Shown piece after piece: positions 24,401 to 64,000 of a stretch of 64,000 nucleotides of DNA. Source of the DNA: Anthoceros angustus (lineage: Eukaryota > Plantae > Anthocerotophyta); the NCBI GenBank assembly GCA_010909165.1, contig MU008165.1, positions 806,001 through 870,000 on the forward strand, read 5' to 3'. Numbering within the stretch: the stretch's first letter is position 1; the number at the start of each line of letters is the position of its first letter. The position numbers were made by a program, and so were the translations under genes. The notes under the pieces are model-generated. The model ran no database searches. It was not told where the DNA came from and saw nothing but the letters and a program-made list of their open reading frames with translations.

Positions 24401-24449
24401 TCCCTCATTCAGGCGGGACACGCAATTGTGTGTTGTGTCGTTGTAGGTC

Positions 24450-34189: not shown

Positions 34190-35389
34190 ATGGCGATGGC
34201 GGCGCCAGCTCTGGTGCGGGAGGGGCAGTCTTTGGCCCCGCTGGTCTGCAGGGATGCGGGCAGCAGAGGAGGAGGAAGGGCGTGGTGGCCATGGTGGCGG
34301 TTCCCGTCCGGCCTAGCTTCACGCCCGGCAGTTCCACGACGGGGAGCTGGAGTTCGATCGGCGCCTCCCCTTTCACCCGCGGACATCCGGGCTGCTATCC
34401 CCAAGCACTTCTGGGAGAAGAATACCTTGAGGTCCTTGAGCTATGTTGCGAGGGACGTGGCGGTGGTCTTGGGCTGCTGGCGCGTATCTCAACAACTGGT
34501 TTGTGTGGCCTCTCTGTCTTGGTTCGTGCAGGGCACCATGTTCAGGCCTTGTTCGTCTTTGAGGCACTGCACTGACAGGAGCTTCTCCAATAACAAGACG
34601 CTCAATAGCGTCATCGCACCTCACGCACTCGTCCATTCTTGTGCCGTTTCACGGGTGGAGGATCAGCCACGCACCACCGGAACCACGGGCATGTGGAAAG
34701 ACGAGTCCTGCACCCCATGTCGGAAAGCACGTACGGGGTTGGACAGCGTTACCGGTCGGCAGGCTCTCCTTGCCCTGGGCCATGTTCGCCTACCCGTTCT
34801 ACCTCTTCTCCAGGGCCGGGCAAGACAGGTTCCCATTTCGACCCGGCCGACACTGTTGTCCCTGGGCGGGCAGTGCTCACCTCCACGCCCTGGCTGCCAT
34901 GGCCGCTCTCTGGCGGGCTGGCCGTGGGCCCCTATCTGGATGCTCAAGCTCTACGTTGTGCCCTCGGCCAATGTGGTGTGGCTGGATGTGGTCACCTACC
35001 TCCACCACCACGGGTATGAGCACAAGGTCCCTTGGTGCAGGCGAGAGTGGAACTACATGCGTGGAGGGCTCTCCACCATCGACCGGGACTACGGCTGGAT
35101 CAACAACATCCACCACGACATTGGCACTCACGTCGTCCATCATCTCTTTCCCAGTTCCTCACTATCACTTGGTGTGGAGGAGGTATGAAGCCTGTCTTTG
35201 AGCAAATATTACAGGAGCCCAAGAAGTCTTTGTGGTTTCCTCTTCATCCGCCAACCCCTGGTCAAGAGCATGAAGGAAGACCACTATGTTCGACTACAGG
35301 AACGCCGTCTTCTACCAAACGACTCAGCCGATGGCAGTGGGAAGTGGAGTGCACTCGCCTCCCCTTCCGACGCGTCTCCGGGCCGATAA
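34190..35389 (+). CDS. FAD7: Plastid-type omega-3 fatty acid desaturase (FAD7/FAD8 family), intronless, frameshifted in this sequence
   Basis: Transit-peptide-like N-terminus, then ADIRAAIPKHFWEKNTLRSLSYVARDV, LVPFHGWRISH..HHRNHGHVE.DES, WLDVVTYLHHHG, EWNYMRGGLSTIDRDYGWINNIHHDIGTHVVHHLFP, DHYV. The first His box is garbled. Confidence 0.9.
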
Positions 35390-36158
35390 GAAGGAAGGTA
35401 TGTTTTGCCGAGGTGGATTGAATGTAAAGTGGAGTTCATGGCGTTTGTCCTTGATGCGTTGCGACTTGTCGAGAAGAATGGTGATCATTTGAGCAGACAT
35501 TTTTGAAGACAAAGAAGCATAGGGATGCAGAAGCTGGCAAGCTCGGATCACCCGTAGGTGGTGTGCTTGAGTCCTCTCGTTTCTTCTTGATGCTTAGTAC
35601 TAGCAATTTGTTTCGTTCATGATCGATGGTAGTTTGAGGTTATGTGCAGGTGTGATTAAAATCCAATTTCAGAAGTCTCATTGTGCAAGCGAGTTCAAAG
35701 CATCGATAAAGTGATTGTACTTATGGACTTCCTGCAAAGTGATTGCTCGGCCTCAACGCCCTTTTTCATATGTAAGGGTCACTCGGACTCTTTGCTTCAA
35801 TTTGTTTTCTTAGGACCCCAGTTTAAGGACTGGTTTACTAACAAGGTGCTTTTCCTGTGTGCCCTCGGATACAACACCACCCAAGGTGCGAGTAAAAGAT
35901 CTCCAACAGACATTGTATGCAGCGGGACTAGCCCAGTGCTCTGGTTTACTTTTCTCTCACGAAACTCCCAAAGGTATATCCGGCTCATGTGTTGGTGTGT
36001 TATGCGAGCAATAGATACCGTAGGTACCCTTAACTTACATCCAATGGTTCCCATCACAAATCTTTAGGTCTGTAAGTGCGGATATGTGCAGAAAGGGGCC
36101 CGTTTGTGAAGCTAGAGATTGCCGAGCTGCGGGATCTTCACCGGTTGATAACCAAGGA

Positions 36159-43790: not shown

Positions 43791-43793
43791 TAG

Positions 43794-44330
43794 TGTAAGT
43801 TAGACCAGTGCTTGATTGTGGCAGCTATGGTTGGATGGAGCATCTCGGTTGGGTTACACAAAACTGTTAAGAAAAGAGCTGAGCCTTTATAGAGAGGGAA
43901 CACAACACTCCCATACAATATGGGTGATACACTAGGCCACTAGATACTAGCTCACAAGCACACAAGAACACTTGCAAACACCACACCCCACATGTCGGTC
44001 GGCTTGGCCTTATATAGTCCTAGCCTTGAGTCATACTGGTTACTTGACCTTGAATCCTATTGGTTACTTGACCTTGAGTCCTATTGGTCATTTGACCTTG
44101 AATCTTACTGGTCACTTGACTTGCCCTTTACTTTGGGCTTTCTAGAAGATACTTTCTAGAAGATGCATGACTTTCAAGTTTGTTATTTTTAGGGCATTCT
44201 TCATAACCTGCTTTTAGGGCACTCTTCATAACATATTTTGATATGTTGTAATAAATCACTTCTAATACAAAAGGCAAGACGTGCTGAGGGGATACTTGTT
44301 GTACACCCATGGACACAAAATCGTGGAGTA
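43794..44330 (-). repeat. LTR-like sequence with TATA box and 4 x 24-bp tandem repeat
   Basis: Minus strand ends ..acttaCA at 43794; ctatataagg at 44008-44017; ccttga(a/g)tc(c/a/t)ta(t/c)tggt(t/c)a(c/t)ttga x4 at 44024-44119. Confidence 0.5.
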
Positions 44331-44679
44331 ACTTGTGTTCGGATCCGTCCGGCTCAAAACCCTCGATCTCGGAGGACTATTCCGCCTTGTCTCTGGTTCC
44401 ACTGGGTGTGGGAGGTTGCGGAGGTGTGCATTTCTTGTCCTTAACTTGTGGAAGTACGTGTTTCGATTCAGTAATGTGGCTGCCATGCTGACCAACCACT
44501 TAGCTTTGATTACATTGTTACTCTTGAAAATGAGTGTGTTTTGAGACAACGATTGTTCGGACGATACAGTCATTTAGCTCTACATTTCTACTCCTCCTGA
44601 ATTACAGAGTTAACTTGATGATCTCATGCTAGCATTGCAGCATCAGCCATCCCCGATCTTACTTGTCCATGCTTGTTTC

Positions 44680-45226
44680 CGTCTACAATTGCTAAACTCT
44701 CATGAGGCTTCCACACACAAACAACCCGTGATCACACTCCTAGACGGCTCGATGCTAGCAGTCTTGGTGAGCTTCACCACGCCATATGTAATAACTAGAA
44801 TGGTGAATGGCCTCAGACTACTGTGCACAATCGACGTTGACTGACAGGCTTCCTTGTCCCAAGTAATTTGAATAGAGTAATTCATGCCATCGTTATCCCG
44901 TGTAATCATGCTTCTTCTTCTTCCGCGTGCGTTTAGGTCTAAGGACGTTAGGATCCTAAGAGGCGAACCCCGTGCCCGTACTCAGATACTACAACAATTC
45001 CACCTTCCAATTGAAACCATTGAATTGGCCACACATTGTCGCCCCAAATCTTGCGTAAGAAATCCTCTCTCCTATGATCCCAAACTCCCTCCAATTCCAC
45101 AATAAGGCCGTCGGATCTTCGGCGACCTCTATACACATTATCATAGCCCAATTCTCGCTCTAGCACCTCATACTCATTTGTTATTGCAGAACATTTCAAT
45201 AGCAGACCAGCAGGACCTCCCCCCAT
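44680..45226 (-). pseudogene. CDKF;1: CDK-activating kinase CDKF;1-like N-terminal fragment (subdomains I-VII), intronless
   Basis: AITNEYEVLER..VYRGRRRSDGLIVELEGVWDH..IVVVSEY and IQI..EACQSTSIVHSSLRPFTILVITYGVVKLT match recalled plant CDKF;1 ([52 protein letters not shown]). Confidence 0.7.
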
Positions 45227-45657
45227 TCCTTCTCACTGATTTATGGAACAACACTTTGTAGCCTCACCGCTCTCCCTGGTGACGCTCGCAAGACAAGGCA
45301 GCACAAATATATATGTTTGATGTCCTGGATGCCCACAACTTTATTCCCACAGTGTTAAAAAACAATAAGTCCAAGTTCAGTACATTAAATGATAGGGTGC
45401 TATACATACATATATAGCCCTTGGCCTTTGACATACTCTACATAGGTATGAACCCTATCATGATATTGTCCTGTACATTTCTTCTCTGAACTCTAATATG
45501 AGATGTATTGCACCAATCCTATACATTTCTAACACACGCCCCCTCTCCAATTTACTCACTCCGTCCGATCCTCAATGAGTACCTACCTGGAGCTCACTTG
45601 AAGCCACCAATATCGTCGTTGGGCTTCACTCAAATATACATAAGCGCTCAAAGATAC

Positions 45658-46502
45658 TCAGGCTGGGACTGAGGACCACGTGCTTCTAACGAGTCTCGTC
45701 CCAATCGGGCGAATGCAAGCCACGGAATTGTGCCTCAATTCCCAGGCAGATCGATTATAATGGCCTGCTTTGCCAGGGTGACGTGCCGCCGGTTCGTTTG
45801 AATTAACGAGACCTTCTGTTTTGGAGTCGCCAAATCGTCGGTGCTGGGAGACTTGTTGCAACCCTACGGCAATAGGCAATAAGTGTTTAAACCGATCCAC
45901 CTCCAGCACCGGTTGTAGCCATCTTCTCTTCGTCATCGTCTACTACGGACCCCGACCAACTTCTTACTTGTTGAAGAAGTTGTGAAACGAGCTTCGCTAG
46001 CTGGCGCTCAGCTAGGGAAAGCCTTCGAACCTTATATCTCGTTGTTGTCCGTCGCACGCTCTATGCAACTGAGCTGCTCCAGCTTTTTCTTTCAACATGG
46101 GATATGATAAAACGTATTACTAATCTTTTGAACCTGCTACCCTTCTCCACACTTGGATTCATGCGCAAACATGTTTTGTTGGCCTCATGAAATTTGGCCC
46201 GGTATCGTCGTCTCCAACGGGAAGCATAGGAGGTTTACAAGCGGCCGTTCTGACCGTTCTTTGTCTGGCCCGAATTTTTTCTTGCCTATCCAATTGTTCT
46301 GAAGCTTGCAACCGGTATTACCTGGCTAGCCTTACGTGTACGTCAAACCTGCTTCTTTTACGGTCCGCTGATAGGATTTCCCTCCTATCGTGCATCAACC
46401 TACTCCCAAAAGCTGTGCTGGAACGTGCTGAAATCAAAATTACTCCGCCCACATCAATAATGGGTACCTAATGGGTCCGGCTGAACTTTTTCAAAAGCCA
46501 TG
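45658..46502 (-). pseudogene. Unidentified ORF remnant
   Basis: Long protein-like stretches (VPIIDVGGVILISARSSTAFGSRLMHDRREIL; WLQPVLEVDRFKHLLPIAVGLQQV). No family recognised. Confidence 0.25.
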
Positions 46503-46589
46503 GTCCCACGAACGCACTTTCCAGAGCGAAACTTGGCATTGCAATGCTTGTTAGCATGATTACCGGAGTTTAATGCGAGTTATTTGTTC

Positions 46590-47050
46590 ATTGCCACTCC
46601 ACTGAGGATGTTGAGGCTTTGGGAGTTTTGGTGCAGACAAAGCGTTGTATTTCCAAGCCTCTCATTTTCTGTGTTCGGGGCACCTCTTGATGCTTGGAAG
46701 ACGCCCAGAGAGTGTTTGATGGGTTACACTGAAAAATGTGGCAACGTGGAACGTCATGATAACAATTCCAGCAGGAATACGAGAAGCCCTTCGTCTCTAC
46801 AGTGCTATGCAAGGAAAGGGCTTGGTTGCCCCTGATACTGTGACGTTTGTTTGTCTCCTCCAGGCCTGTGGCAATTCTGGGCCCTCCAGCCTTGGAGGTG
46901 GGAAGCAGCTTCATTTGCAAATTGGAGAACGGTTCAGTGTACTCAGCAGTGGCAAGATCTTTTGGGTTTAAAGTAGTGAGGTATGCAACTGTGGGATGTG
47001 AAGAGTGTTCTTGGGCTAGCAATGTCATTGTTACAGCCGTCGGGACCAGT
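46590..47050 (+). pseudogene. PLS-class PPR gene fragment (deleted paralogue of the next copy)
   Basis: LEDAQRVFDGL..KNVATWNVMI..EALRLYSAMQGKGLVAPDTVTFVCLLQACG..GKQLHLQI; the 5' part matches 47735-47810. Confidence 0.85.
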
Positions 47051-47470
47051 TCTTGATCGGCAGACTGAGTACCCCTTCCTGCGAATTTATGCATGCAAAT
47101 CTCATAAATGTAGCAAGTTTACAAGAAGTTGCTGTTCAGACTGTCGTACCAATCAATTCGAAAACGTACCACTATCACCAGAGGAGTGGAGAAGCTGGCG
47201 CTGGTGTGTGGGTGCGCAGAGGATTGCATTATGTTAACCATAGTCGAGGTGCCCAATTTTTTCTCTCGCACGATTTTCTGTCGGCAGGAGCCTTATGGTC
47301 TGGAGCTCGGTTGGGCCACACCAAGGATAGCACGACCCGCTAAGAGGACAGTTTTCGTGCACCCAACAGAATGGTGGATTGGCTGCTGGTCGGGGCATAG
47401 CTGCCGGTACGGTGGCTTCAAAAAAGCAACCGGTGGCAAACAACCAAGTCGGGAGGTGGAGCACATTGTC

Positions 47471-48890
47471 ATGAGACCCACCGCGTCAAAGAGAGTTTCT
47501 TTGGGCTTGTATTCTCCTGCGAGCCTCGACCTCGGGAGCTTTTGTGCCGACTGCTGCCTCAGCACACCATGCTCCAGGTCGATAAGGCAGACCAAGAGGG
47601 CTCTAGGTATGGAGATGGAGTTGGGTGGTGGTGGCTTGCACTGGAGTTTGCCGGACAAGCCTGACCGTCACAGGCCTGCTGGATGGTATACGAGTGTGAC
47701 GGCTGAGACCGTGAGAGAGCTATGTGGTCAGGGCCATTCCACTGAGGCTGTTGCGGCTTTGGGAGTTCTGGTGTAGACAGAGCGTTATATTTCTAAGCCT
47801 CTAATTTATGCTTTTTTGAAGAGATGTGTAGTCGAGCAGGACCTTGTTCTAGGTCAAAGGGTCCATGCTTTCTTGGTGAAACAAGGGCATCAGTCAGATA
47901 CGTTCCTGGGATTCCACATTCTGCGGATGTATGCTGCTCATGGCAGGTTGCAAGATGCGATCCAGAGATGTATTTTCAGTTGTGGCTAAAACAGATACCT
48001 TCACGTGGTCTGCCATAAGCTCTGCCCATGTTATACAATGGTGAGACTAGCAGGCCTTACAACTCTATGATAGGACATGCGCGCAAGTCAAGGGTGAAGC
48101 CAGATGGGATGTCTTCGTGGCAACTCTTCAGGCTTGTGCAAGGGGATTAGAGTTGAAAATTGGGCAGCAGGTGAATGCGGACGTGTTGGACAGTGGCGTT
48201 GAGCCTGATTGTTTTGTCTGTAATTGCTTGGTAAGCATACGCAGCTTGGAAGACGCTGAGAGTTTCTACTGTGCTATGCAAGGATAGGGCTTAGTTTCCC
48301 CTATACTATGACGTTTGTTTGTCTCCTGCAGGGCCCTTTAGCCCTGAAGATGGGGAAGCAGCTAGTTTCTTTTGCAAATTGGAGAACGGTTTCAGTGAGC
48401 TCGCAAGTGACGAGATATTTTGGGTTTGAAGCCCTGAGAGATTTCCAGGTGCTCGCCAAAGTGAGGAGTCTTTCCTTTTAGTTCCCATGATGTCATGCAT
48501 AGTTGAAAATTGAGGGTTGACAAGCAAGGATGGCCATTGTTTATCAACCCTCAATTTGTCAACTACGTATGACATCATGGGAAGAAGCCCACATGCACTT
48601 GGGAAGAAGCCCTTCGTCTGTATAATGGTATGAAAGGAAAGGGCATGGTTGTTCCTGGTATCGTGACGTTTGTTTCTCTCCTGCAGGCCCGTGCAAGTCT
48701 GGGCCCTTCAGCCTTGGAGATGGGCACGCAGCTTCATCTGCAAATTGGAGAACAGGATCATCAGGCTCATGTAGTTGTAGCCTACAGTTCGGTAAACATG
48801 TATGCAAACAGCCTGGAAGACGCTCGGGAAGTCTTTGACAGCCTTGGTGAAAAAAATGTGGTGACGTGGACTGCTCGAATTGCGATGCTT
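47471..48890 (+). pseudogene. PLS-class PPR protein gene, truncated by the tandem array
   Basis: N-terminal extension, then YAFLKRC..DLVLGQRVHAFLVKQGHQSDTFLG, GRLQDA, VEPDCFVCNCLV, EEALRLYNGMKGKGMVVPGIVTFVSLLQA..LEDAREVFDSLGEKNVVTWTA. Homology stops at the 85-bp repeats. Confidence 0.88.
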
Positions 48891-48896
48891 AATTAA

Positions 48897-49152
48897 CATA
48901 ACCATTTCGTATTAATTAATTAATACTAATAACTTACTTAATGATAAGTCATTAGATTAATTAATGCTAGATATAAATGAATTTAACCACTTCATATTAA
49001 TTAATTAATACTAATAACTTACTTAATGATAAGTCATTAGATTAATTAATGCTAGATATAAATGAATTTAACCACTTATATTAATTAATTAATACTAATT
49101 ACTTACTTAATGATAAGTCATTAGATTAATTAATGCTAGATATAAATGAATT
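48897..49152. repeat. 85-bp AT-rich hairpin repeat x3 (unit 1); x5 at 53030-53441, x3 at 57225-57470, x3 at 61333-61580
   Basis: aaccacttcatattaattaattaatactaataacttacttaatgataagtcattagattaattaatgctagatataaatgaattt, containing a ~21-bp imperfect inverted repeat. Confidence 0.95.
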
Positions 49153-49261
49153 TAACATAAATCAGCAGCACTATCTCTTTCTAAAATAGATGCCAATATA
49201 CCAATCGACACACCGTTGAAAATTTACCAATTTACTAGTTGCCAATATGAAGCGGTAGTTT

Positions 49262-49280
49262 CTCATGGGGTATAAATGGA
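49262..49280 (+). promoter_or_regulatory. TATA-like motif (ggggTATAAATgg) between the two repeat arrays, present in all units
   Basis: Motif only; conserved at about 49268, 53559, 57584 and 61695. Confidence 0.3.
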
Positions 49281-49359
49281 GACTTAAATCGAAACCACTG
49301 GACTCGAACTTGAAATCTTGTTATCCATTCTTCTTGCATGTAACTTTTTTATAATTCTA

Positions 49360-50462
49360 TGATCTACTGTTAAGGTTTGTTCAATGAAGATTGATGTTCT
49401 CCTTTACGGAGGGATGAGTTTATGCATGTATATTCCTATGTGTGCTAACGAATTCATTCTCTCTACTTGTTCTCTACAGTTTCCCTAGAGGGCACGTAAA
49501 TTACCCAAAGGCGAGACCTAAACCAAAGATTTCCTCCACGCCATGAACTTCAAAATCTCCTACTCTTGCAAATATCTTTTAATGATCGTGTGATCTACGG
49601 TTGTTAAGGTCTGTTCAATGAAGATTCATGTTCTCCTTTATAGAGGGATGGGTGTATGCATGTGTATTCCGGCGCGTGTTAACGAATTCATTCTTTCTAC
49701 TTGCTTCCTACAGGTTTCCCTAGAGGGCACGTAAATTACCCAAAGGGCGAGACCTAAACCGAAAGATTTCCTCCGCACCATGAACTTAAAAATCTCACAT
49801 TCTTGCAAATATCTTTAAATAATCGTGTGATCTACGGTTGTTAAGGTTTGTTCAATGAAGATTCATGTTCTCCTTATAGAGGATGAGTTTATGCATGTAT
49901 GTTCCTATGTGTGCTAACGAATTCATTCTCTCTACTTGTTCTCTGAGTTTCCCTAGAGGGCACGTAAATTACCCAAAGGGCAACACCTAAATCGAAATAG
50001 TTCCTCCGCGCCATGAACTTCAAAATCTCATACTCTTGCAAATATCTTTTAATGATTGTGTGATCTACAGTTGTTAAGGTCTGTTCCATGAAGATTCATG
50101 TTCTCCTTTATAGAGGGATGGGTGTATGCATGTGTATTCCGGCGCGTGTTAACGAATTCATTCTTTCTACTTGTTCCCTACAGGTTTCCCTAGAGGGCAC
50201 GTAAATTACCCAAAGGGCGAGGCCTAAACCGAAAGATTTCTTCCGCACCATGAACTTAAAAATCTCACATTCTTGCAAATATCTTTTAATAATCGTGTGA
50301 TCTACTGTTAAGGTTTGTTCAATGAAGATTCATGTTCTCCTTTATAGAGGATGAGTTTATGCATGTATGTTCCTGTGTGTGCTAAGAATTCATTCTCTCT
50401 ACTTGTTCCTGGGTTTCCCTAGAGGGCACGTAAATTACCCAAAGGGCGAGACCTAAACCGAA
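49360..50462. repeat. ~236-bp tandem repeat, alternating A/B variants, x5 (unit 1); x3 at 53652-54292, x5 at 57680-58752, x5 at 61790-62857
   Basis: Core gaagattcatgttctccttta..ccctagagggcacgtaaattacccaaagggcgagacctaaaccgaaaga. A has atgagtttatgcatgtatgttcc; B has atgggtgtatgcatgtgtattcc. Confidence 0.95.
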
Positions 50463-50493
50463 GAAATACTCCTATTTATCAATCTTTAAAATT

Positions 50494-51297
50494 ATGGAGT
50501 CCACAATGAAAATTGAAGTGAGAATGTTTGAAGAAAGATACATATGTGGAAAATGTATCGGTGAAGGAGGTTTTTCCAAAGTCTATGAATGCTATGACAA
50601 ATATACGGAAAGATATTTTTGCAAAATTATGAAAAATCTAAAGACATAAATGATGCAATATGTAGAGATCAACACTCTTGATCTCTTCCAAAATATTCTC
50701 ATATTATTAACACAAAAGTGTTCATGAGGATATTGAACATATTTATATTGTGATGGAGCTATGTACCAATGGTACACTAAAGGATGAACTAAAAAGGGGA
50801 GCTTATTGTGAAGAGGATGCAAAAATACTTATGTTTAACCTAATGGAGGCAATCAATTTTGCCACAGGCATAATGTTATGCATCGCGATTTGAAACCGCT
50901 AATATACTATTACTTAGTCTCAAAGTCATACTAGCAGACTTTGGTTTGTCTCCATGTCTCCAAAAGCGAACATGAATTATTATGCTGCAGGAACCCCATG
51001 TTACATGGCTCGGAGGTATTGAGTCGGAAGACGATGTAAACATAAGCTATACTTCAAAAGCCGATATTTGGAGCGCAGAGTCATTTTGTATGAAGTTTTA
51101 ACGAAATCGTCCTTATATAGGATATGAGTTCGACGTAAAAAGAAGAATGGATAACTCAATTGGACCTAGATGAGTGGCCCAACATGTCACACAGTGAAAG
51201 ATCTACTACACTCAATGTTACATTTAGAACAAGAGTGTAGACCGGATCTTGACAAGTTCTAAACCATTCTTGGTTTTGCTCGCTATCTTATATATGA
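50494..51297 (+). CDS. Minimal (~267 aa) CAMK/CDPK-like Ser/Thr kinase, intronless and AT-rich, unit 1
   Basis: Cross-copy consensus: IGEGGFSKVYEC, FACK, REINTL, IYIVMELCTNG, VMHRDLKPANILL, LADFGL, GTPCYMAPEV, KADIWSAGVILY, WPNMS..DLLHSML..VLNHSWF*. Two 60-nt lines counted at about 32-33% GC. Confidence 0.9.
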
Positions 51298-51639
51298 AAG
51301 ATAGTAATTTTATTATATAAGAACTTTTATTTGTATTATATATTTTAATATAATGATTTTTATTTTAACTTTATTCATAATTTCATTAAACCACTCTTGA
51401 CCTCTTTCTTGTGGAAAAGTCTTCAAGCCATGCAAGCGAGTCATGAAATTGATGTAGTGAAGCTAAGATTGGAGTATATCGCTATGTGTTTAGCCTGAGT
51501 CTTTGTTTTGGTCATTGTCATAGCATGGCATAATAGCATCGGACAATTTCTTCTTCTATAGCTACGCATATTATAGTTACTAAATCGCATGTTAGAATCT
51601 TGGCCGGGTTCAAACCACGATTCTGCGCTCTAAGCGGTG

Positions 51640-52830
51640 CTCAGCTGGGGCGACCACACCAAGGGTGTGCGAATGTTTTGAATCATGAGCCGAGCAAGTG
51701 AGCGTGGCACAGGCGGTGTGAAGATGGCGGCGAGAAGGAAAATTGGCATTTAGGAAGCGGATTGTTGAAGTCCCACCTTGCGGTAGTCACAGAGAACTCC
51801 TAGCACAGGCAATGGACACCGTTCGAAAGAAGCCATCACACAAGAAAGGGGCGGGTAGGCTTTAGCACGCCTTGATGAACTGGAGAAATCCTTGCCCATG
51901 GCCCCGTGAGTCTCGATGGCAAGGGGATGAAGGCGTGGCCCTTCTTGCATGGGCGTAGTGAACGTTGTTGTCGCGCATCTCGCCGCTGGAGGGTTGATGA
52001 TGGCGTGCTTGCGGGCAAGGTCATTCGGCCACATCCACAACGGTCCCTCGGCCGTCGAGAACATGGCGTCGCGGACGGCGTGATCGTGTGCTGGCCATTT
52101 GGAGAGCGAGGGCTCGGCGGCGAGTCTAAAGAGAGCGAGCCAAAGGTTGGACCAAACCAGGCGGAACCTCATCGCGGTAGAAAAGAAGTGCGACTCGAAA
52201 TACCTTGATGCAAGGTCGGGCTAGAAGCCATGAACACCTCCTTCCCGAGCAAGAGCGGGCGAGCTCGGGTCAAGGAATGGAGGAATCGAGGAGCAAAGCC
52301 CGCGTGCCCATACAAGTTTCTTCTCATGGAGGGAGGCCAAAAGCCGGCCCGTCCAGAGAACGAGGGACGAATGCGGCACGCCTAGCCTCGGAGGATAGGA
52401 CACCTAGCCAATCTTAAGGACAAGCATGCAGGGAAGGCGCCTCCTCGGCGAGACGAGGCCTTGAAGATGCGGTAATCCCAGGATTAGGAAATGGGAGGCC
52501 TAGATGCGGGTTGAGAGGACCAAGCTCAAGCGTCGTGCGGATGCCTTGCGGCGCACTCTAAGGGGCCGCTCTTGAGGTAAGCAATTGCATTCATGTGAGC
52601 ACTTCCTCAACGGACAACCAAGCAAAACAAGTCTAATATGCAAATATAGGTGCAAACCAATTTGTAACACTAGGAGAGAGTAGCTCGCACGTTGTGGTTT
52701 TCCTCCCACACTCTCCCCACGAGAACAACACGCAAATTGTTGGCACATGGCTCTCGGAGTGATAGCTTTGGCCTCCTCACAACACTCTTGCATCGCATAT
52801 CTAGAGGACAAGCTATGATGTGAGCTTGTC
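51640..52830 (-). mobile_element. 3' fragment of a CRE-clade (RLE-type) non-LTR retrotransposon, unit 1
   Basis: Cross-copy consensus RARLRSCSG..SWLLARP..F, HDAVRDAMFSA, VVDVA, KY..GHAFIPLAIETHGAMG..F, FFQQRVSIALQ: the RT C-terminal/zinc-knuckle/RLE tail. No RT core. Confidence 0.8.
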
Positions 52831-54322
52831 CTTTGTGAAAGGGTCTATATAGATATACTAGGCCTTGGCATTGGCATATTCCTAAGATATCCTATTGGCA
52901 TCAGCATATGCCGGAAATATCCAAAGAATACACCATAATATGCAAGGAATATGCTAAAGCATATAACTTGTGTTTATCCACTTAGTTATTGCTAGCGTGT
53001 TTAATTAGGATGTATGCTTAATTAACATAACCACTTCATATTAATTAATTACTAATTACTTAATGATAAGTCATTAGATTAATTAATGCTAGATATAAAT
53101 GAATTTAACCACTTCATATTAATTAATTAATACTAATAACTTACTTAATGATAGGTCATTAGATTAATTAATGCTAGATATAAATGAATTTAACCACTTA
53201 TATTAATTAATTAATACTAATTACTTACTTAATGATAAGTCATTAGATTAATTAATGCTAGATATGAATTTAACCACTTATATTAATTAATTAATACTAA
53301 TAACTTACTTAATGATAGGTCATTAGATTAATTAATGCTAGATATAAATGAATTTAACCACTTCATATTAATTAATTAATACTAATAACTTACTTAATGA
53401 TAAGTCATTAGATTAATTAATGCTAGATATAAATGAATTTAACATAAATCAGCAGCACTATCTCTTTCTAAAATAGATGCCAATATACCAATCGACACAC
53501 GTAGTTGAAAATTTACCAATTTACTAGTTGCCAATATGAAGCTGGTAGTTTCTCATGGGGTATAAATGGTGAGACTTAAATCAGCTACGCTCGGACTGAA
53601 CTTAAAATCTTGTTATCCATTCTTCTTGCATGTAACTTTTCATAATTCTATGATCTACTATTGTTAAGGTTTGTTCAATGAAGATTGATGTTCTCCTTTA
53701 CGGAGGGATGAGTTTATGCATGTATATTCCTATGTTATGCTAACGAATTCATTCTCTCTACTTGTTCTCTACGTTTCCCTAGAGGGCACGTAAATTACCC
53801 AAAGGCGAGACCTAAACCGAAAGATTTCCTCCGCGCCATGAACTTAAAAATCTCACATTCTTGCAAATATCTTTTAATAATCGTGTGATCTACGGTTGTT
53901 AAGGTATGTTCCATGAAGATTCATGTTCTCCTTTATAGAGGGATGGGTGTATGCATGTGTATTCCGGCGTGTTAACGAATTCATTCTTTCTACTTGTTCC
54001 CTCTGGTTTTCCCTAGAGGCACGTAAATTACCCAAAGGGCGAGACCTAAACCGAAAGATTTCCTCACCATGAACTTAAAAATCTCACATTCTTGCAAATA
54101 TCTTTTAATAATCGTGTGATCTACGGTTGTTAAGGTTTGTTCAATGAAGATTCATGTTCTCCTTTACGGAGGGATGAGTTTATGCATGTATGTTCCTATG
54201 TGTGCTAGCAATTCATTCTCTCTACTTGTTCTCTCTGAGGTTTCCCTAGAGGGCACGTAAATTACCCAAAGGGCGAGACCTAAACCGAAAGAAATACTCC
54301 TATTTATCAATCTTTTAAAATT

Positions 54323-55123
54323 ATGGAGTCCACAATGAAAATTGAAGTGAGAATGTTTGAAGAAAGATACATATGTGGAAAATGTATCGGTGAAGGAGGT
54401 TTTTCCAAAGTCTATGAATGCTATGACAAATATACGGAAAGATATTTGCCCAAAATTATGAAAAATCTAAAGACATAAATGATGCAATATGGAGAGATCA
54501 ACACTCTTGATCTCTTCCAAAATATTCTCATATTATTAACACAAAAGTGTTCATGAGGATATTGAACATATTTATATTGTGATGGAGCTATGTACCAATG
54601 GTACACTAAAGGATGAACTAAAAAAGGGGAGCTTATTGTGAAGAGGATGCAAAAATACTTATGTTTAACCTAATGGAGGCAATCAATTTTGCCCAGGGCA
54701 TAATGTTATGCATCGCGATTTGAAACCGGCTAATATACTATTACTTATATCTCAAAGTCATACTAGCAGACTTTGGTTTATGCATTCCATGTCTCCAAAA
54801 CGAACATGAATTATTATGCGAGTGCAGAACCCCATGTTACATGGCTCGGAGGTATTGGAGTAAGGCGATGTAAACATAAGCTATACTTCAAAAGCCGATA
54901 TTTGGAGCAGTCATTTTGTATGAAGTTTTAACCGAATCGTCCTTATATAGGATATGAGTTCGACACAAAAGAAGAATGGATAACTCAATTGGACCTAGAT
55001 GGGTGGCCCAACATGTCACACGGTGAAGATCTACTACACTCAATGTTACATTTAGAACAAGAGTGTAGAGGATCTTGACAAGTTCTAAACCATTCTTGGT
55101 TTTGCTCGCTATCTTATATATGA
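54323..55123 (+). CDS. Minimal CDPK-like kinase, unit 2
   Basis: Same motifs as unit 1. Confidence 0.9.
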
Positions 55124-55439
55124 AAGATAGTAATTTTATTACATAAGAACTTTTATTTGTATTATATATTTTTAATATAATGATTTTTATTTTAACTTTA
55201 TTCATAATTTCATTAAACCACTTCGGCCTCTTTCTTGTGGAAAGTCTTCAAGCCATGCAAGCGTCATGAAATTGATGTAGTGAAGCTAAGATTGGAGTAT
55301 ATCGCTATGTGTTTAGCCGGGTGAGTCTTTATTTTGGTCATTGTCATAGCATGGCATAATAGCATCGGACAATTTCTTCTTCTATAGCTCGCATATTATA
55401 GTTACTAAATCGCATGTTAGAATCTTGGGTTAAAACCCC

Positions 55440-57030
55440 GATTTCTCGGCTCTAAGCGGGCTCAGCGTGCTTGTGGGGCGACCACCAAGGTGTGCGAATG
55501 TTTTGAATCATGAGCCGGGCAACGTGGCGAGGCGGAGTGTGAAGATGGCGGTGCGAGAAGGAAAATTGGCATTTAGGGGAAAGCGGCTATTGTTGAAGTC
55601 CCACCTTGCGGTGGTCACGGAGAGAACTCCTACCTGCAGGCAATGGACACCCGTTGCTGAAGAAGCCATCACACAAGAAAAGGGGGCGGGCTGTAGGCTT
55701 AGAGCCTTGATGAACTGGAGAAATCCTTGCCCATGGCCCCGTGAGTCTCGATGGCAAGGGGATGAAGGCGTGGCCCTTCTTGCATGGGCGAGTACTTGTG
55801 AGCGTTCGTTGTCGCATCTCTCCGCCACCCAACCGGAGGGTTGATGATGGCGATCTGCGGGCGGTGTCCGGGCAAGTGCATACGGACATCTGACGTCCCC
55901 CTCGGCCGAGAACATGGCGTCATGACGGACGTGCGTGGCGCGCCGCACGGAGCGAGCTACCGGTCTAAAGAGAGCAGCCAAAGGTTGGACCAAACCCAGT
56001 GAACCTCATCAGTAGAAAAGAAGCCGGTGCGACTAAATACCTTGATGCAAGGTCGGGCTAGAAGCCATGAACCTCCTTCCCGAGCAAGAGCGGAGGCGAG
56101 CTCGAGGCTGGTCAAGGAATGGAGGAATCGAGGAGCAAAGCTGCGTGCCCATACAAGTTTCTTCTCATGGAGGGAGGCCAAAGCCCGGCCGTCCGCAGAG
56201 AACGAGGGGCAGATGCGGCGCGCCCTAGCCTCGGAGGATAGGACACCTAGCCAATCTTGGGACAAGCATGCAGGGAGGCGCCTCCTCGGCCGAGAACATG
56301 GCGTCGCGACGGCGTGATCGTCAATGCGCTGCCACGGTGGAGAGCGAGGCTACGTGACAGTCTAAAGAGAGCAGCCAAAGGTTGGACCAAACCCAGTGAA
56401 CCTCATCAGTAGAAAAGAAGCCGGTGCGACTCGAAATACCTTGATGCAAGGTCGGGCTAGAAGCCATGAACACCTCCTTCCCGAGCAAGAGCGGAGGCGA
56501 GCTCGTTGGTCAAGGAATGGAGGAATCGAGGAGCAAAGCAGCCACGTGCGCCATACAAGTTTCTTCTCATGGAGGAAAAGCCCCGGCCGTCCGAACGAGG
56601 GGCGAATGCGGCGTGACCGCCCTAGCCTCGGAGGATGGGACACCCTAGCCAATCTTAAGGACAAGCATGCGGGAAGGCGCCTCCTCGACGCACGAAGGCC
56701 TTGAAGATGCGGTAATCCCCGATTAGGAAATGGGAGGCCTAGATGCGGGTTGAGGCTCAAGCGTCGTGCCGGATGCCTTGCAGGCGCCTCTAAGGGCCGC
56801 TCTTGTGAGGTAAGCAATTGCATTCATGTGAGCACTTCCTCAACGGACAACCAAGCAAAACAAGTCTAATATGCAAATACCAATTTGTAACACTAGGAGA
56901 GTAGCTTGCGTTGTGGTTTTCCTCACACCTCACGAGAACAACACGCAAATTCGGCACATGGCTCTGGGTGATAGCTTTGGCCTCCTCACAACTCTCTTGC
57001 ATTGCATATGTAGAGGACAAGTTATGATGT
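55440..57030 (-). mobile_element. CRE-like fragment, unit 2, with an internal ~385-bp tandem duplication (55903-56690)
   Basis: Block from ctcggccgagaacatggcgtc to gcagggaggcgcctcctcg occurs twice, joined through cctcggc. Confidence 0.8.
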
Positions 57031-58786
57031 GAAACTTGTCGCTCAGAAATCTATATAGATATACTGGGCCTTGGCATTGGCATATTCCTAAGATATCCTA
57101 TTGGCGTCTACGAAATATCCAAAGAATACACCATAATATGCAGGAATATGCTAAAGCATATAACTTGTGTTTATCCACTTAGTTGCTACCGTGTTTAATT
57201 AAGATGTCGATGCTTAATTAACATAACCACTTCATATTAATTAATTACTAATTACTTAATGATAAGTCATTAGATTAATTAATGCTAGATATAAATGAAT
57301 TTAACCACTTCATATTAATTAATTACTAATAACTTACTTAATGATAGGTCATTAGATTAATTAATGCTAGATATAAATGAATTTAACCACTTCATATTAA
57401 TTAATTAATACTAATTACTTACTTAATGATAAGTCATTAGATTAATTAATGCTAGATATAAATGAATTTAACATAAATCAGCAGCACTATCTCTTTCTAA
57501 AATAGATGCCAATATACCAATCGACACACTTGAAAATTTACCAATTTACTAGTTGCCAATATGAAGCCCGGTAGTTTCTCATGGGGTATAAATGGGCGAG
57601 ACTTAAATCAAACTACCGCTCGGACTCAACTTAAAATCTTGTTATCCATTCTTCTTGCATGTAACTTTTCATAATTCTATGATCTACGGTTGTTAAGGTT
57701 TGTTCAATGAAGATTGATGTTCTCCTTTACGGAGGGATGAGTTTATGCATGTATATTCCTATGTAACGAATTCATTCTCTCTACTTGTTCTCTCTGTTTC
57801 CCTAGAGGGCACGTAAATTACCCAAAGGCGAGACCTAAACCGAAAGATTTCCGCGCCATGAACTTAAAAATCTCACATTCTTGCAAATATCTTTTAATAA
57901 TCGTGTGATCTACGTTGTTAAGGTATGTTCCATGAAGATTCATGTTCTCCTTTATAGAGGGATGGTGTATGCATGTGTATTCGCGTGTTAACGAATTCAT
58001 TCTTTCTACTTGTTCCTGAGTTTCCCTAGAGGGCACGTAAATTACCCAAAGGGCGAGACCTAAACCGAAAGATTTCCTCCGCCATGAACTTAAAAATCTC
58101 ACATTCTTGCAAATATCTTTTAATAATCGTGTGATCTACTGTTGTTAAGGTTTGTTCAATGAAGATTCATGTTCTCCTTTACGGAGGGATGAGTTTATGC
58201 ATGTATGTTCCTATGTGTGCTAACGAATTCATTCTCTCTACTTGTTCTCTGAGTTTCCCTAGAGGCACGTAAATTACCCAAAGGCGAGACCTAAACCGAA
58301 AGATTTCCTCCGCACCATGAACTTAAAAATCTCACATTCTTGCAAATATCTTTTAATAATCGTGTGATCTACGGTTGTTAAGGTATGTTCCATGAAGATT
58401 CATGTTCTCCTTTATAGAGGATGGGTGTATGCATGTGTATTCGCGTGTTAACGAATTCATTCTTTCTACTTGTTCCCCTGGGTTTCCCTAGAGGGCACGT
58501 AAATTACCCAAAGGCGAGACCTAAACCGAAAGATTTCCTCCGCATGAACTTAAAAATCTCACATTCTTGCAAATATCTTTTAATAATCGTGTGATCTACG
58601 GTTGTTAAGGTTTGTTCAATGAAGATTCATGTTCTCCTTTATAGAGGGATGAGTTTATGCATGTATGTTCCATTAACGAATTCATTCTCTCTACTTGTTC
58701 CTCGAGGTTTCCCTAGAGGGCACGTAAATTACCCAAAGGCGGACCTAAACCGAAAGAAATACTCCTATTTATCAATCTTTAAAATT

Positions 58787-59589
58787 ATGGAGTCCACAAT
58801 GAAAATTGAAGTGAGAATGTTTGAAGAAAGATACATATGTGGAAAATGTATCGGTGAAGGAGGTTTTTCCAAAGTCTATGAATGCTATGACAAATATCGG
58901 AAAGATATTTGCCTGCAAAATTATGAAAAATCTAAAGACATAAATGATGCAATATGTAGAGATCAACACTCTTGATCTCTTCCAAAATATTCTCATATTA
59001 TTAACACAAAAGTGTTCATGAGGATATTGAACATATTTATATTGTGATGGAGCTATGTACCAATGGTACACTAAAGGATGAACTAAAAAGGGGAGCTTAT
59101 TGTGAAGAGGATGCAAAAATACTTATGTTTAACCTAATGGAGGCAATCAATTTTGCCACAGGCATAATGTTATGCATCGCGATTTGAAACCGCTAATATA
59201 CTATTATTTAGTCTCAAAGTCATACTAGCGGACTTTGGTTTGTCATTCCATGTCTCCAAAACGAACATGAATTATTGTGCGATGCGAGAACCCCATGTTA
59301 CATGGCTCGAGGTATTGGAGTCAGACGATGTAAACATAAGCTATACTTCAAAAGCCGATATTTGGAGCGCAGGAGTCATTTTGTATGAAGTTTTAACGAA
59401 ATCGTCCTTATATAGGATATGAGTTACGAAAAAGAAGAATGGATAACTCAATTGGACCTAGATGAGTGGCCCAACATGTCACACAGTGAAAGATCTACTA
59501 CACTCAATGTTACATTTAGAACAAGAGTGTAGACCGGATCTGAACAAGTTCTAAACCATTCTTGGTTTTGCTCGCTATCTTATATATGA
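58787..59589 (+). CDS. Minimal CDPK-like kinase, unit 3
   Basis: Same motifs; ORFs 58619-58975 and 59240-59422. Confidence 0.9.
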
Positions 59590-59899
59590 AAGATAGTAAT
59601 TTTATTACATAAGAACTTTTATTTGTATTATATATTTTTAATATAATGATTTTTATTTTAACTTTATTCATAATTTCATTAAACCACTCTTGAGGCCTCT
59701 TTCTTGTGGAAAGTCTTCAAGCCATGCAAGCGTCATGAAATTGATGTAGTGAAGCTAAGATTGGAGTATATCGCTATGTGTTTAGGATGAGTCTTTGTTT
59801 GGTCATTGTCATAGCATGGCATAATAGCATCGGACAATTTCTTCTTCTATAGCTACGCATATTATAGTTACTAAATCGCATGTTAGAATCTTGACGGGT

Positions 59900-61140
59900 T
59901 CGCAAACCCCGATTACCGGCTCTAAGCTCACGTGCTTGTGGGACGACCACACCAAGGGTGTCGAATGTTTTGAATCATGAGCCGAGCAAGTGAGCGTGGC
60001 CAGGCGGAGTGTGAAGATGGCGGCGTCGAGAAGGAAAATTGGCATTTAGAAGCTATTGTTGAAGTCCCACCTTGCGATCACGGAGAGAACTCCTAGCACT
60101 GCAGGCAATGGACACCGTTGCTGAAGAAGCCATCACACAAGAAAAGTGTGGTAGGCTTTACGAGCCTTGATGAACTGGAGAAATCCTTGCCCATGGCCCC
60201 GTGAGTCTCGATGGCAAGGGGATGAAGGCGTGGCCCTTCTTGCATGGGCGAGTACTTGTGAACGTCGTTGTCGCGCATCTCTCCGCCACCCAACCCGGAG
60301 GGTTGATGATGACGTGCTGCGCGGTGTCCGGGCAAGGTCTTACGCCACATCCACAAACGGTCCCCCCCTCGCCGAGAACATGGCGTCGCGGACGGCGTGA
60401 TGCGTGTAATGCGCGCCGGAGCGAGGGCTACGGTGTCTAAAGAGAGCGGCGCCAAAGGTTGGACCAAACCAGTGAACCTCATCGGTAGAAAAGAAGCCGG
60501 TGCGACTCGAAATACCTTGATGCAAGGTCGGGCTAGAAGCCATGAACTGCTCCCTTCCCCGCAGGCGGAGCGAGCTCGGTCAAGGAATGGAGGAATCGAG
60601 GAGCAAAGCCATGCGCGTGCCCATACAAGTTTCTTCTCATGGAGGGAGGCCAAAGCCCCACGCAGCCGTCCGCAGAGAACGAGGACGAATGCATGGCCGC
60701 CCTAGCCTCGGAGGATAGGACACCCCTAGCCAATCTTAAGGACAAGCATGCAGGAAGGCGCCTCCTCGACGCCCGACGAAGGCCTTGAAGATGCGGTAAT
60801 CCCAGGATTAGGAAATGGGAGGCCTAGATGCGGGTTGAGAGGACCAAGCTCAAGCGTCGTGCGGATGCCTTGCGGCGCACTCTAAGGGCCGCTCTTGGAG
60901 TAAGCAATTGCATTCATGTGAGCACTTCCTCAACGGACAACCAAGCAAAACAAGTCTAATATGCAAATACCAATTTGTAACACTAGGAGAGAGTAGCTTG
61001 CGTTGTGGTTTTCCTCCCACACTCTCACGAGAACAACACGCAAATTGCCGCACATGGCTCGGAGTGATAGCTTTGGCCTCCTCACAACTCTCTTGCATTG
61101 CATATGTAGAGGACAAGTTATGATGTGAGCTTGTCCTTTG
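59900..61140 (-). mobile_element. CRE-like fragment, unit 3
   Basis: ORF 60093-60653 carries SWLLARP and LHPLAIETHGAMGKDF. Confidence 0.8.
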
Positions 61141-62888
61141 TGAAAGGGTCTATATAGATATACTAGGCCTTGGCATTGGCATATTCCTAAGATATCCTAT
61201 TGGCATCGACTATCGAAATATCCAAAGAATACACCATAATATGCAAGGAATATGCTAAAGCATATAACTTGTGTTTATCCACTTAGTTATTGCTAACCGT
61301 GTTTAATTAATGAATCGATGCTTAATTAACATAACCACCATATTAATTAATTAATACTAATTACTTAATGATAAGTCATTAGATTAATTAATGCTAGATA
61401 TAAATGAATTTAACCACTTATATTAATTAATTAATACTAATAACTTACTTAATGATAGGTCATTAGATTAATTAATGCTAGATATAAATGAATTTAACCA
61501 CTTATATTAATTAATTAATACTAATTACTTACTTAATGATAAGTCATTAGATTAATTAATGCTAGATATAAATGAATTTAACATAAATCAGCAGCACTAT
61601 CTCTTTCTAAAATAGATGCCAATATACCAATCGACACACTGTTGAAAATTTACCAATTTACTAGTTGCCAATATGAAGCCCGTAGTTTCTCATGGGGTAT
61701 AAATGGGCGACTTAAATCGAACTGCTCGGACTCGAACTTCAAATCTTGTTATCCATTCTTCTTGCATGTAACTTTTCATAATTCTATGATCTACTTGTTA
61801 AGGTTTGTTCAATGAAGATTGATGTTCTCCTTTACGGAGGGATGAGTTTATGCATGTATATTCCTATGTGTGCTAACTAATTCATTCTCTCTACTTGTTC
61901 TCTGAGGTTTCCCTAGAGGGCACGTAAATTACCCAAAGGCGAGACCTAAACCGAAAGATTTCCTCCGCCATGAACTTAAAAATCTCACATTCTTGCAAAT
62001 ATCTTTTAATAATCGTGTGATCTATTGTTAAGGTATGTTCCATGAAGATTCATGTTCTCCTTTATAGAGGGATGGGTGTATGCATGTGTATTCCGCGTGT
62101 TAACGAATTCATTCTTTCTACTTGTTCCCTGAGGTTTCCCTAGAGGGCACGTAAATTACCCAAAGGGCGAGACCTAAACCGAAAGATTTCCTCACCATGA
62201 ACTTAAAAATCTCACATTCTTGCAAATATCTTTTAATAATCGTGTGATCTACGTTGTTAAGGTTTGTTCAATGAAGATTCATGTTCTCCTTTACGGAGGG
62301 ATGAGTTTATGCATGTATGTTCCTATGTGTGCTAATTCATTCTCTCTACTTGTTCTCTGTTTCCTAGAGGGCACGTAAATTACCCAAAGGGCGAGACCTA
62401 AACCGAAAGATTTCCTCCGCACCATGAACTTAAAAATCTCACATTCTTGCAAATATCTTTTAATAATCGTGTGATCTACTTGTTAAGGTATGTTCCATGA
62501 AGATTCATGTTCTCCTTTATAGAGGGATGGGTGTATGCATGTGTATTCGTGTTAGAATTCATTCTTTCTACTTGTTCCCTGGGTTTCCCTAGAGCACGAA
62601 TTACCCAAAGGCGAGACCTAAACCGAAAGATTTCCTCACCATGAACTTAAAAATCTCACATTCTTGCAAATATCTTTTAATAATCGTGTGATCTCTACGG
62701 TTGTTAAGGTTTGTTCAATGAAGATTCATGTTCTCCTTTATAGAGGGATGAGTTTATGCATGTATGTTCTGTGTGTGCTAACGAATTCATTCTCTCTACT
62801 TGTTCCTCAGTTTCCCTAGAGCACGTAAATTACCCAAAGGCGAGACCTAAACCGAAAGAAATACTCCTATTTATCAATCTTTAAAATT

Positions 62889-63705
62889 ATGGAGTCCACA
62901 ATGAAATTGAAGTGAGAATGTTTGAAGAAAGATACATATGTGGAAAATGTATCGGTGAAGGAGGTTTTTCCAAAGTCTATGAATGCTATGACAAATATAC
63001 GGAAAGATATTTGCCTGCAAAATTATGAAAAATCTAAAGACATAAATGATGCAATATGTAGAGAGATCAACACTCTTGATCTCTTCCAAAATATTCTCAT
63101 ATTATTAACACAAAAGTGTTCATGAGGATATTGAACATATTTATATTGTGATGGAGCTATGTACCAATGGTACACTAAAGGATGAACTAAAAAGGGGAGC
63201 TTATTGTGAAGAGGATGCAAAATACTTATGTTTAACCTAATGGAGGCAATCAATTTTGCCACGGGCATAATGTTATGCATCGCGATTTGAAACCGCTAAT
63301 ATACTATTACTTAGCCGTCTCAAAGTCATACTAGCGAGACTTTGGTTTATGCTCCATGTCTCCAAACGAACATGAATTATTATGCAGTGCAGAACCCCAT
63401 GTTACATGGCTCGGAGGTATTGGAGTCTCAAGACGATGTAAACATAAGCTATACTTCAAAAGCCGATATTTGGAGCGCAGGAGTCATTTTGTATGAAGTT
63501 TTAACGGAAATCGTCCTTATATAGGATATGAGTTCGACCGCGAAAAAGAAGAAGAATGGATAACTCAATTGGACCTAGATGAGTGGCCCAACATGTCACA
63601 CAAGTGAAGATCTACTACACTCAATGTTACATTTAGAACAAGAGTGTAGACCGGATGTGACAAGTTCTAAACCATTCTTGGTTTTGCTCGCTATCTTATA
63701 TATGA
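62889..63705 (+). CDS. Minimal CDPK-like kinase, unit 4
   Basis: Same motifs; ORF 63342-63524. Confidence 0.9.
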
Positions 63706-63853
63706 AAGATAGTAATTTTATTACATAAGAACTTTTATTTGTATTATATATTTTTAATATAATGATTTTTATTTTAACTTTATTCATAATTTCATTAAAC
63801 CACTCTTGATTGCCTCTTTCTTGTGGAAAGTCTTCAAGCCATCTGGCGATCAT
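63630..63853 (-). CDS. Small (~70 aa) K/I/N-rich ORF convergent with and overlapping the kinase 3' end; present in each unit
   Basis: M..WLEDFPQERG.QEWFNEIMNKVKIKIIILKIYNTNKSSYVIKLLSFIYKIASKTKNGLEL; frame stays open through very AT-rich sequence. Confidence 0.3.
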
Positions 63854-64000
63854 GAAATTGATGTAGTGAAGCTAAGATTGGAGTATATCGCTATGTGTTT
63901 AGCTGAGTCTTGTTTTGGTCATTGTCATAGCATGGCATAATAGCATCGGACAATTTCTTCTTCTATAGCTACGCATATTATAGTTACTAAATCGCATGTT

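Follow-up and report, generated by a model that had tools for sequence, protein, structure and literature searches.

Terminal-repeat retrotransposons in miniature that lie in tandem arrays (TA-TRIMs) and the capture of genes by TRIMs have been described (PMC4717578), and tandem arrays with incomplete units at their ends are known for Cassandra (PMC7215508). Veju TRIMs capture sequence by template switching (PMC13317346), tandems that share long terminal repeats (LTRs) are on record (PMC5932611), and in Retand elements antisense open reading frames (ORFs) occur together with tandem repeats (PMC11963269). The present study concerns a tandem array in the hornwort Anthoceros angustus, located in a stretch of 64,000 nt (assembly GCA_010909165.1, contig MU008165.1, positions 806,001 to 870,000 of the forward strand; hereafter the window, numbered from its first letter). 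There, a 4.1-kb block made of LTR-like repeats, palindromes, a protein kinase gene and a piece of a non-LTR retrotransposon is repeated head to tail at least four times and runs to the end of the window. It is a real composite macrosatellite that looks undescribed and whose frame is built from familiar retroelement parts; no published description of the architecture was found in open-licence PMC and bioRxiv texts. An earlier sequence-only reading of the window had considered either a viral or plasmid segment that was hit by a CRE-type retrotransposon and then amplified, or a non-autonomous CRE derivative that carries the kinase as cargo and amplifies in tandem. The LTR-like parts, which that reading overlooked, explain much of the architecture of the unit.

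Results

Organization of the array

48887–53015, no strand: unit 1, 4129 bp
53016–57211, no strand: unit 2, 4196 bp
57212–61319, no strand: unit 3, 4108 bp
61320–64000, no strand: unit 4, at least 2681 bp, cut by the window end before its CRE part

Each unit contains, in this order, 85-bp palindromes, a spacer, 225–237-bp repeats, the plus-strand kinase, a GC-rich minus-strand part, a leader and a 365-bp repeat. The claim of at least four tandem units in a fixed order was therefore borne out, with starts at 48887, 53016, 57212 and 61320. When units 1 and 3 were compared over their full length by BLASTN, they were 91.8% identical (127 mismatches, 219 gaps), and no BLASTN alignment between unit 1 and window positions 1–48880 was obtained at E 1e-5. 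Besides the ~365-bp LTR-like repeat with its ~100-bp leader (52560–53027), the earlier reading had also missed a 384-bp duplication in unit 2.

The AT-rich module had been regarded as foreign to the host genes. The contrast with the fatty acid desaturase (FAD) gene of the window was confirmed (61.6% GC, against about 62% in the earlier estimate, and 34.5% in 48890–51600), but the kinase is less AT-rich than the estimated 32% (35.5% measured), and the difference is weaker beside the copia element at 31–5440 (46.6%) and the 365-bp repeat (42%). Thus, the AT-richness is less foreign than the comparison with FAD implies. The CRE part has 58% GC. A tRNA search of the sequence found no tRNA, the counts of sigma-70 promoters and terminators were at chance level, and an Rfam search of 44000–57300 gave only sub-threshold matches to miRNA families, on a hairpin outside the array.

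The 236-bp repeats resemble a TRIM

49331–50462, plus strand: 236-bp A/B array, TRIM-like, consisting of a ~112-bp mini-LTR (TGTTAAG..CA) and a ~124-bp internal part
53623–54292, 57652–58757 and 61759–62859, plus strand: further 236-bp arrays, from repeat comparison

Units 1 to 4 carry 4.7, 2.9, 4.9 and 4.9 copies of the 225–237-bp repeat, and a dimer period of 460–470 bp was seen in two of the four units. The mini-LTR (for example 49368–49478 and 49602–49712) begins with TGTTAAG in all 18 monomers, and in 17 of them its 3' end has 12–16 nt in common with the U5 end of the copia element. The terminal CA coincides with a site prone to errors and can be made out clearly in 4 of the 18. The longest of these matches is exact over 16 nt, between the mini-LTR 3' end and the 30 nt preceding the perfect primer-binding site (PBS) of the copia element at position 31; in DNA outside the array, none of 1625 further windows of 30 nt reached 15 nt, although the match was spotted after the fact. 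Because a ~112-bp segment combines the TGTTAAG start with the match to a copia LTR end, we consider the 236-bp array TRIM-like. As in TRIMs, short TG..CA direct repeats alternate with a short non-coding internal domain.

The array breaks off after 52 bp of an internal part, 32 bp upstream of the kinase ATG, and a diverged copy of the internal 3' end stands before the first mini-LTR of the array. From these two boundaries it follows that the block can be read as a tandem of TRIM-like monomers, one of whose internal domains holds ~3 kb of cargo. A 79-aa repeat protein encoded by the 236-bp monomer was considered and discarded, since the longest stop-free stretches did not exceed those of shuffled sequences (4 of 18 monomers, p 0.09–0.83).

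The copia element itself occupies window positions 1–5450; it has the perfect iMet PBS at 31, a gag match and a tract resembling a polypurine tract (PPT) near 5435, and its 3' LTR was not found in the window.

A second LTR-like repeat and its leader

52663–53027, minus strand: ~365-bp LTR-like repeat, one per unit, with TG..CA ends, a TATA-like CTATATAG and a 30-bp internal repeat
52560–52662, minus strand: leader adjoining the LTR-like repeat, high copy, beginning with AATTGGTAT in units 2 and 3 and with AATTGGTTT in unit 1

TG..CA termini, a TATA box and a high copy number are features that the 365-bp repeat shares with LTRs. The loose-end consensus of eight contigs showed that other copies of the repeat stop at a TG..CA-type end. 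In two of three units the repeat is followed by the PBS-like AATTGGTAT, which agrees with the iMet PBS at 6 of 12 nt, and unit 1 reads TGGTTT at this place. A PPT was not found beside the repeat, which is abutted by an AT-rich hairpin, and at the edge towards the upstream genes a complete LTR and a target duplication were both lacking; the right edge of the array falls beyond the window. The Pfam translations revealed neither gag nor pol inside the unit. A metagenome match to a 20-mer of the repeat was a lone 21-bp match and was taken as chance.

Outside the array, 43800–45550 holds two stretches that resemble LTRs and have TATA motifs as well as two gag-like fragments, and one of these stops at a clear purine tract near 45536–45550.

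The kinase is apparently intact and deeply diverged

50494–51297, plus strand: intronless CAMK/CDPK-like Ser/Thr kinase, ~270 aa, from Pfam, frameshift-aware alignment and tree
54323–55123, 58787–59589 and 62889–63705, plus strand: further kinase copies, from frameshift-aware alignment
51298–51400, no strand: very AT-rich stretch (13.5% GC) behind the kinase stop, from base composition

All four kinase fragments scanned gave Pfam Pkinase matches below the curated cut-off. With frameshift-aware alignment the kinase can be read through in all four units, with 7–11 frameshifts in each and without a single in-frame stop. The frameshifts lie at homopolymers and CG/CHG sites, and those common to all units sit at A/T runs or CG sites. 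Short-read contigs insert letters at several variable kinase sites (among the 12 of 89 indels listed), and homopolymer sites were not confirmed. The glycine loop, the ACK lysine, the helix-C glutamate, HRDLKPAN, DFG and DIWSAG are all kept. The EF-hand tail of plant CDPKs is absent, as the stop comes six codons after the HSW motif in 4/4 units. The kinase, apparently intact, deeply diverged and present in many copies, is the unusual element of the unit.

The best BLASTP matches of the read-through kinase were angiosperm PEPKR2-like proteins (33–37% identity, top 36.8%), closely followed by CDPKs, PPCKs and protist-type CaMKs. Phmmer against 1.84 billion representative sequences returned 107 matches, none of them close, and none was close in the set of 5.8 billion. 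A 52-aa piece shared no word with any candidate among proteins of 92–2000 aa, which is weak evidence. The kinase pieces had no relative in the GTDB genomes, and in IMG/VR two kinase pieces and two repeat cores had no relatives.

For the phylogeny, 77 of 167 kinase domains were kept once near-copies had been removed, and no named viral kinase was included; a more careful tree was built from 46 domains (from the 77 or added by hand) and the window kinase. A quicker tree joined the window kinase with the metagenomic kinase P0217, which comes from a 77-kb ENA contig, at a support of 89. Nesting among host CDPKs, the outcome that would have spoken for an ordinary host gene, was not seen in the free tree, yet approximately unbiased (AU) tests did not reject a plant origin (plant superfamily, p 0.118; PEPKR/PPCK, p 0.082).

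Several kinases came to light alongside these searches. P0335 and P0290 are short metagenomic kinases without EF-hands that nest in plant CDPKs, and one member of the cluster lies on a 59-kb contig; they are possibly virus-captured CDPKs. Against viral contigs, the P0335 probe gave no match and the P0217 probe a single match of 32%. A giant-virus-like IMG/VR contig (L001) with a 263-aa kinase has, at 6071–9187 and judged by eye, also a Rep/helicase-like ORF and two near-identical capsid-like ORFs that start rich in Arg/Lys, a combination that resembles a small circular DNA virus.

The likely CRE tail and the small antisense ORF

51600–52560, minus strand: 5'-truncated tail of a non-LTR retrotransposon with a restriction-like endonuclease (RLE), likely of the CRE clade, 58% GC, from motifs by eye and Atlas clusters
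55908–56291, minus strand: 384-bp tandem duplication in the CRE tail of unit 2, from unit alignment
51441–51590, minus strand: 49-codon ORF, unsupported as a gene by family search

The CRE/RLE assignment made earlier is likely. The motifs HDHAVRDA, HKYSP and HPLAIETHG were recognized by eye, scattered over the frames, and Atlas placed the CRE part in eukaryotic clusters at 0.92–0.93, though these clusters carry no family name; Pfam and PDB searches of this part gave no match. The CRE clade label draws partly on motifs that we take to be those of that clade. Neither a reverse transcriptase domain nor poly(A) was found in the CRE part. The order of RLE motifs used here (zinc knuckle, RHD/N, PD-D, K-Y) follows PMC12857005. 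The unit is not bounded by a 3' tail of the element and a target duplication, and a candidate duplication at the CRE borders was dismissed as a 7-bp repeat at chance level. A viral match to the CRE piece was likewise rejected, being off-frame and in a GC-rich phage. The small convergent ORF, previously listed among the parts of the unit, comprises 49 codons and has no credible family match.

Differences between units probably reflect sequencing errors at methylated sites

In 1163 aligned columns from the kinase onward, variable columns made up 24% near CG, 37% near CHG and about 5% elsewhere. Outside the CG and CHG contexts only two isolated substitutions and one 2-nt difference were present. 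Frameshifts also occur in the host genes of the window. We infer that the differences between units are uncorrected long-read errors at methylated cytosines. As the differences cluster at CG/CHG sites, the units would be near-identical and the array, judging by this error pattern, is probably methylated. The 236-bp monomers of unit 1 hold more private substitutions than those of units 2–4.

Copy number estimated from short-read contigs

The depth of the short-read contigs was 2251–4291 for the 365-bp repeat and 1856 for the leader, compared with 6.6–10 for flank contigs, which is an excess of several hundred-fold for the 365-bp repeat. The contig across the 5' junction of CRE, which includes the leader, had a depth of 61, and places in the kinase had depths of 217–444. 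Read as a rough guide, since summed contig depth is not copy number, these values suggest about 8 CRE-bearing copies among about 30–50 kinase modules. CRE is thus a late passenger, because its junction has a depth of 61 against 217–444 in the kinase. Bins within 51962–52349 in the CRE part were thinly covered in run X1 (9.0 and 2.4), but since errors in the window sequence are most frequent at this place, these bins were not used. A kinase version lacking 191 bp was also present (contig depth 42), as were diverged relatives of ~88–93% identity. The kinase module thus forms a family whose members differ in age, some old and some young.

Palindromes and the left edge of the array

48899–49156, no strand: three 85-bp imperfect palindromes, 17% GC; further sets at 53028–53443, 57224–57472 and 61332–61582
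49160–49330, plus strand: spacer with a TATA-like GTATAAAT, ending in a diverged copy (81%, 37 bp) of the internal part's 3' end from the 236-bp repeat
52996–53027, no strand: junction stem-loop with TTAATTAAG arms and a 9-nt loop, from the fold and the junction sequences
46600–48886, plus strand: PLS-type pentatricopeptide repeat (PPR) gene cluster, frameshifted and broken in mid-motif at the array start; Pfam PPR/PPR_2 below cut-off in two of three frames

The 85-bp repeat is present in 3.0, 4.9, 3.0 and 3.0 copies in units 1 to 4. Its description as a hairpin array held up: the monomer folds better than 200 of 200 shuffled sequences (z -3.8), and one variant copy reached only z -1.8. The breakpoint between the PPR cluster and the array falls inside the 9-nt loop of the TTAATTAA stem-loop, 14 bp from the end of the 365-bp repeat.

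An inverted match between the spacer (57641–57666) and the kinase (59422–59447), of 16/16 nt (22/26) over the codons EEWIT, is borderline chance. Within the PPR cluster, a ~110-bp near-perfect hairpin (48475–48587) resembles a miniature inverted-repeat transposable element and has sub-threshold Rfam matches to MIR6135 and MIR6143 on both strands.

Other features of the window

An omega-3 FAD gene at 34154–35421 is apparently intronless, has 62% GC and is frameshifted. The FAD and PPR genes mark the host as a land plant and the PPR type points to a non-seed plant, whereas a search with the FAD gene did not identify its lineage. A dispersed GC-rich repeat family occupies 6014–12045, 19941–24677 and 38050–40148, where the copies are 68–88% identical; its ORF at 7048–7827 has no Pfam match.

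Discussion

The explanation that we favour, to which we give slightly less than an even chance, is that the kinase was taken up as RNA by an LTR- or TRIM-derived unit, to which the CRE tail and a fragment of an LTR were added later, and that unequal recombination expanded the unit at this locus. The 236-bp monomers would consist of the mini-LTR and the internal domain of a TRIM-like element related to copia, and the ~3 kb of cargo would lie inside one internal domain, whose 5' 52 bp stand before the kinase and whose diverged 3' end lies past the hairpins of the next unit. The kinase was probably captured behind the promoter of the TRIM-like mini-LTR. It may have entered as RNA, through template switching, from an ancient host gene of the CDPK/PEPKR type or from an unknown donor, after which the module could have spread to roughly 30–50 copies. 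One subtype would then have acquired the CRE tail and the LTR fragment and, as direct repeats underwent unequal exchange, multiplied into a tandem of about 8 copies. The left edge may have broken within the cruciform-forming junction palindrome, and the array would now be heavily methylated and likely silent. Published precedents exist for the individual steps (PMC4717578, PMC7215508, PMC13317346, PMC5932611, PMC11963269).

Several observations weigh against this explanation. The mini-LTR is followed by GGTTTCCCTAG, which does not match TGGTATCAGAGC, so that a tRNA PBS is missing; for other tRNAs the comparison relied on what we took to be their sequences. The TGTTAAG start is preceded by GTGTGATCTACGGT, which is not a PPT, and neither of the two LTR-like repeats has a full tRNA-matching PBS or a PPT. 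Similarity of the 365-bp repeat to the LTR-like stretch at 43750–44300 was not significant (score 26–29; shuffle mean 26–27), and its best match in the window, beside a gag-like region, scored 47 against a shuffle maximum of 46. At the array edge, where the 365-bp repeat is reduced to 14 bp, neither an LTR end nor a target duplication is present, and the PPR junction is bridged by none of the contigs listed (16 of 2170 pieces). In the careful tree the kinase belongs neither to the plant clade (100/98) nor to the wider CAMK-like clade (98/98); its branch, of length 1.06, stands near a 275-aa metagenomic kinase, a sister without support. The methylation is read from error patterns only, and the runs X1 and X2 are one sample, maybe the source of the assembly itself. 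Because the PBS and PPT signals are missing and the left edge is broken, we keep our confidence below one half and do not file the unit as a TRIM or an LTR element.

The module of hairpins, spacer and kinase could alternatively be the remnant of an AT-rich DNA virus or plasmid, its palindromes being origin or terminal repeats, that integrated, spread, gained TRIM, CRE and LTR pieces and was then amplified. We regard this as unlikely, though to be taken seriously. A compact, intronless kinase without EF-hands, at 35.5% GC and with a 3' flank at 13.5% GC, would suit such a source, as would the lack of any relative above 37% identity in protein searches and the position in the free tree outside plant kinases and loosely near P0217; regions of the moss genome resembling nucleocytoplasmic large DNA viruses (NCLDVs) have 34% GC and are methylated (PMC4083422). 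Yet the IMG/VR searches described above found no relative, no plasmid or phage match to the window sequence was found, and the best protein matches are plant PEPKR2 and CDPK sequences at 33–37%. The 36 translations scanned with Pfam, which do not cover the full window, had no DNA-virus core domain, and the second ORF lacks credibility as a gene. According to PMC4083422, moreover, GC content cannot separate NCLDV-like DNA from other repeats, and the word 'kinase' is absent from the main text of that paper. Of the viral or plasmid origin proposed by the sequence-only reading, the late addition of CRE is what stands. On the same footing of doubtful but conceivable, the unit might represent an undescribed element family of non-seed plants, with about 30–50 copies, its own diverged and catalytically intact kinase, mini-LTR promoters and flanking palindrome arrays, in which the kinase would be selected as an accessory of the element or virus acting on host signalling or silencing.

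The position of the PPR breakpoint in the loop of the junction palindrome also fits a non-autonomous rolling-circle or tyrosine-recombinase element for which the stem-loop is the place of nicking or recombination and which captures flanks and makes head-to-tail concatemers. TTAATTAA recurs at either end of the unit. Taken by itself, the minus strand of the 365-bp repeat in unit 2 permits the reading A|TC...CTAG|T, and Replitrons, which carry short terminal direct repeats, are common in non-seed plants (PMC10288648). However, the whole unit lacks a CTRR 3' end on both strands and so does not have the ends of a Helitron, it has no Rep, RepHel or recombinase ORF, and the eight-contig consensus shows other 365-bp copies ending in the TG..CA manner; this makes such an element quite improbable. 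It is very unlikely that the array is a plain tandem segmental duplication of a transposon graveyard, in which unrelated fragments between two repeats were co-amplified and the kinase is a decaying retrocopy without a role. Three element types or more did contribute parts, kinase copies with the 191-bp deletion (depth 42) and ~88–93% diverged relatives exist, and satellites can be seeded by double insertions (PMC5932611), but the kinase module is far commoner than the CRE-bearing subtype, and all catalytic motifs are kept, with no in-frame stops in 4/4 units, despite 63% divergence from the nearest protein, which suggests long selection on the kinase. That the kinase is the cargo of a non-autonomous CRE derivative, with target-primed reverse transcription producing the tandem copies, is scarcely credible. 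Although the RLE elements FoTeR and MoTeR hold tandem repeats and truncated copies (PMC12857005), the unit ends are not CRE ends, poly(A) and a convincing target duplication (beyond the chance-level 7-bp repeat) are lacking, and the junction is far less deeply covered than the kinase (61 against 217–444).

If the favoured explanation, capture by an LTR- or TRIM-derived unit, is true, a multi-kilobase macrosatellite of nested retroelement parts amplifies an entire kinase gene as well, within a group of plants for which few long tandem arrays have been described. Should the kinase prove to be conserved and expressed within the element, it would be a surprise to find a non-seed plant with a signalling kinase carried by a transposon or virus.

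Among known systems, elements of the CRE clade (CRE/SLACS/CZAR, MoTeR, FoTeR; PMC12857005) share the C-terminal RLE-type motifs and the 5' truncation, whereas here only a ~950-bp passenger fragment is present, which does not set the unit ends. The NCLDV-like insertions of Physcomitrium and Selaginella (PMC4083422) are alike in being multi-copy, intronless, methylated and retrotransposon-invaded at ~34% GC; they are 13-kb multi-gene blocks, in contrast to the 4-kb tandem units of the array, in which no core viral gene and no viral relative were seen. If the minus strand, that of the 365-bp repeat, is followed, the unit runs as LTR, leader, cargo, antisense ORF, tandem arrays and LTR, like the 3' regions of Retand/Ogre elements (PMC11963269), but it has no gag-pol, TRP28 domain or PPT and its ORF is a kinase. 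With TA-TRIMs, Cassandra and Veju it has in common the shared-LTR tandems of LTR-internal-LTR type, short LTRs, foreign sequence in the internal domain and incomplete terminal units; it differs from them in lacking a recognizable PBS and PPT, in a 3-kb cargo with a whole kinase ORF and a CRE tail, and in having a second LTR-like repeat, palindrome arrays and a higher-order period of 4.1 kb. Satellites derived from transposable elements through unequal exchange (PMC5932611) resemble it in the head-to-tail order, one terminal repeat per unit, internal duplications and variation in copy number, while the hornwort unit combines several element types with an apparently intact gene.

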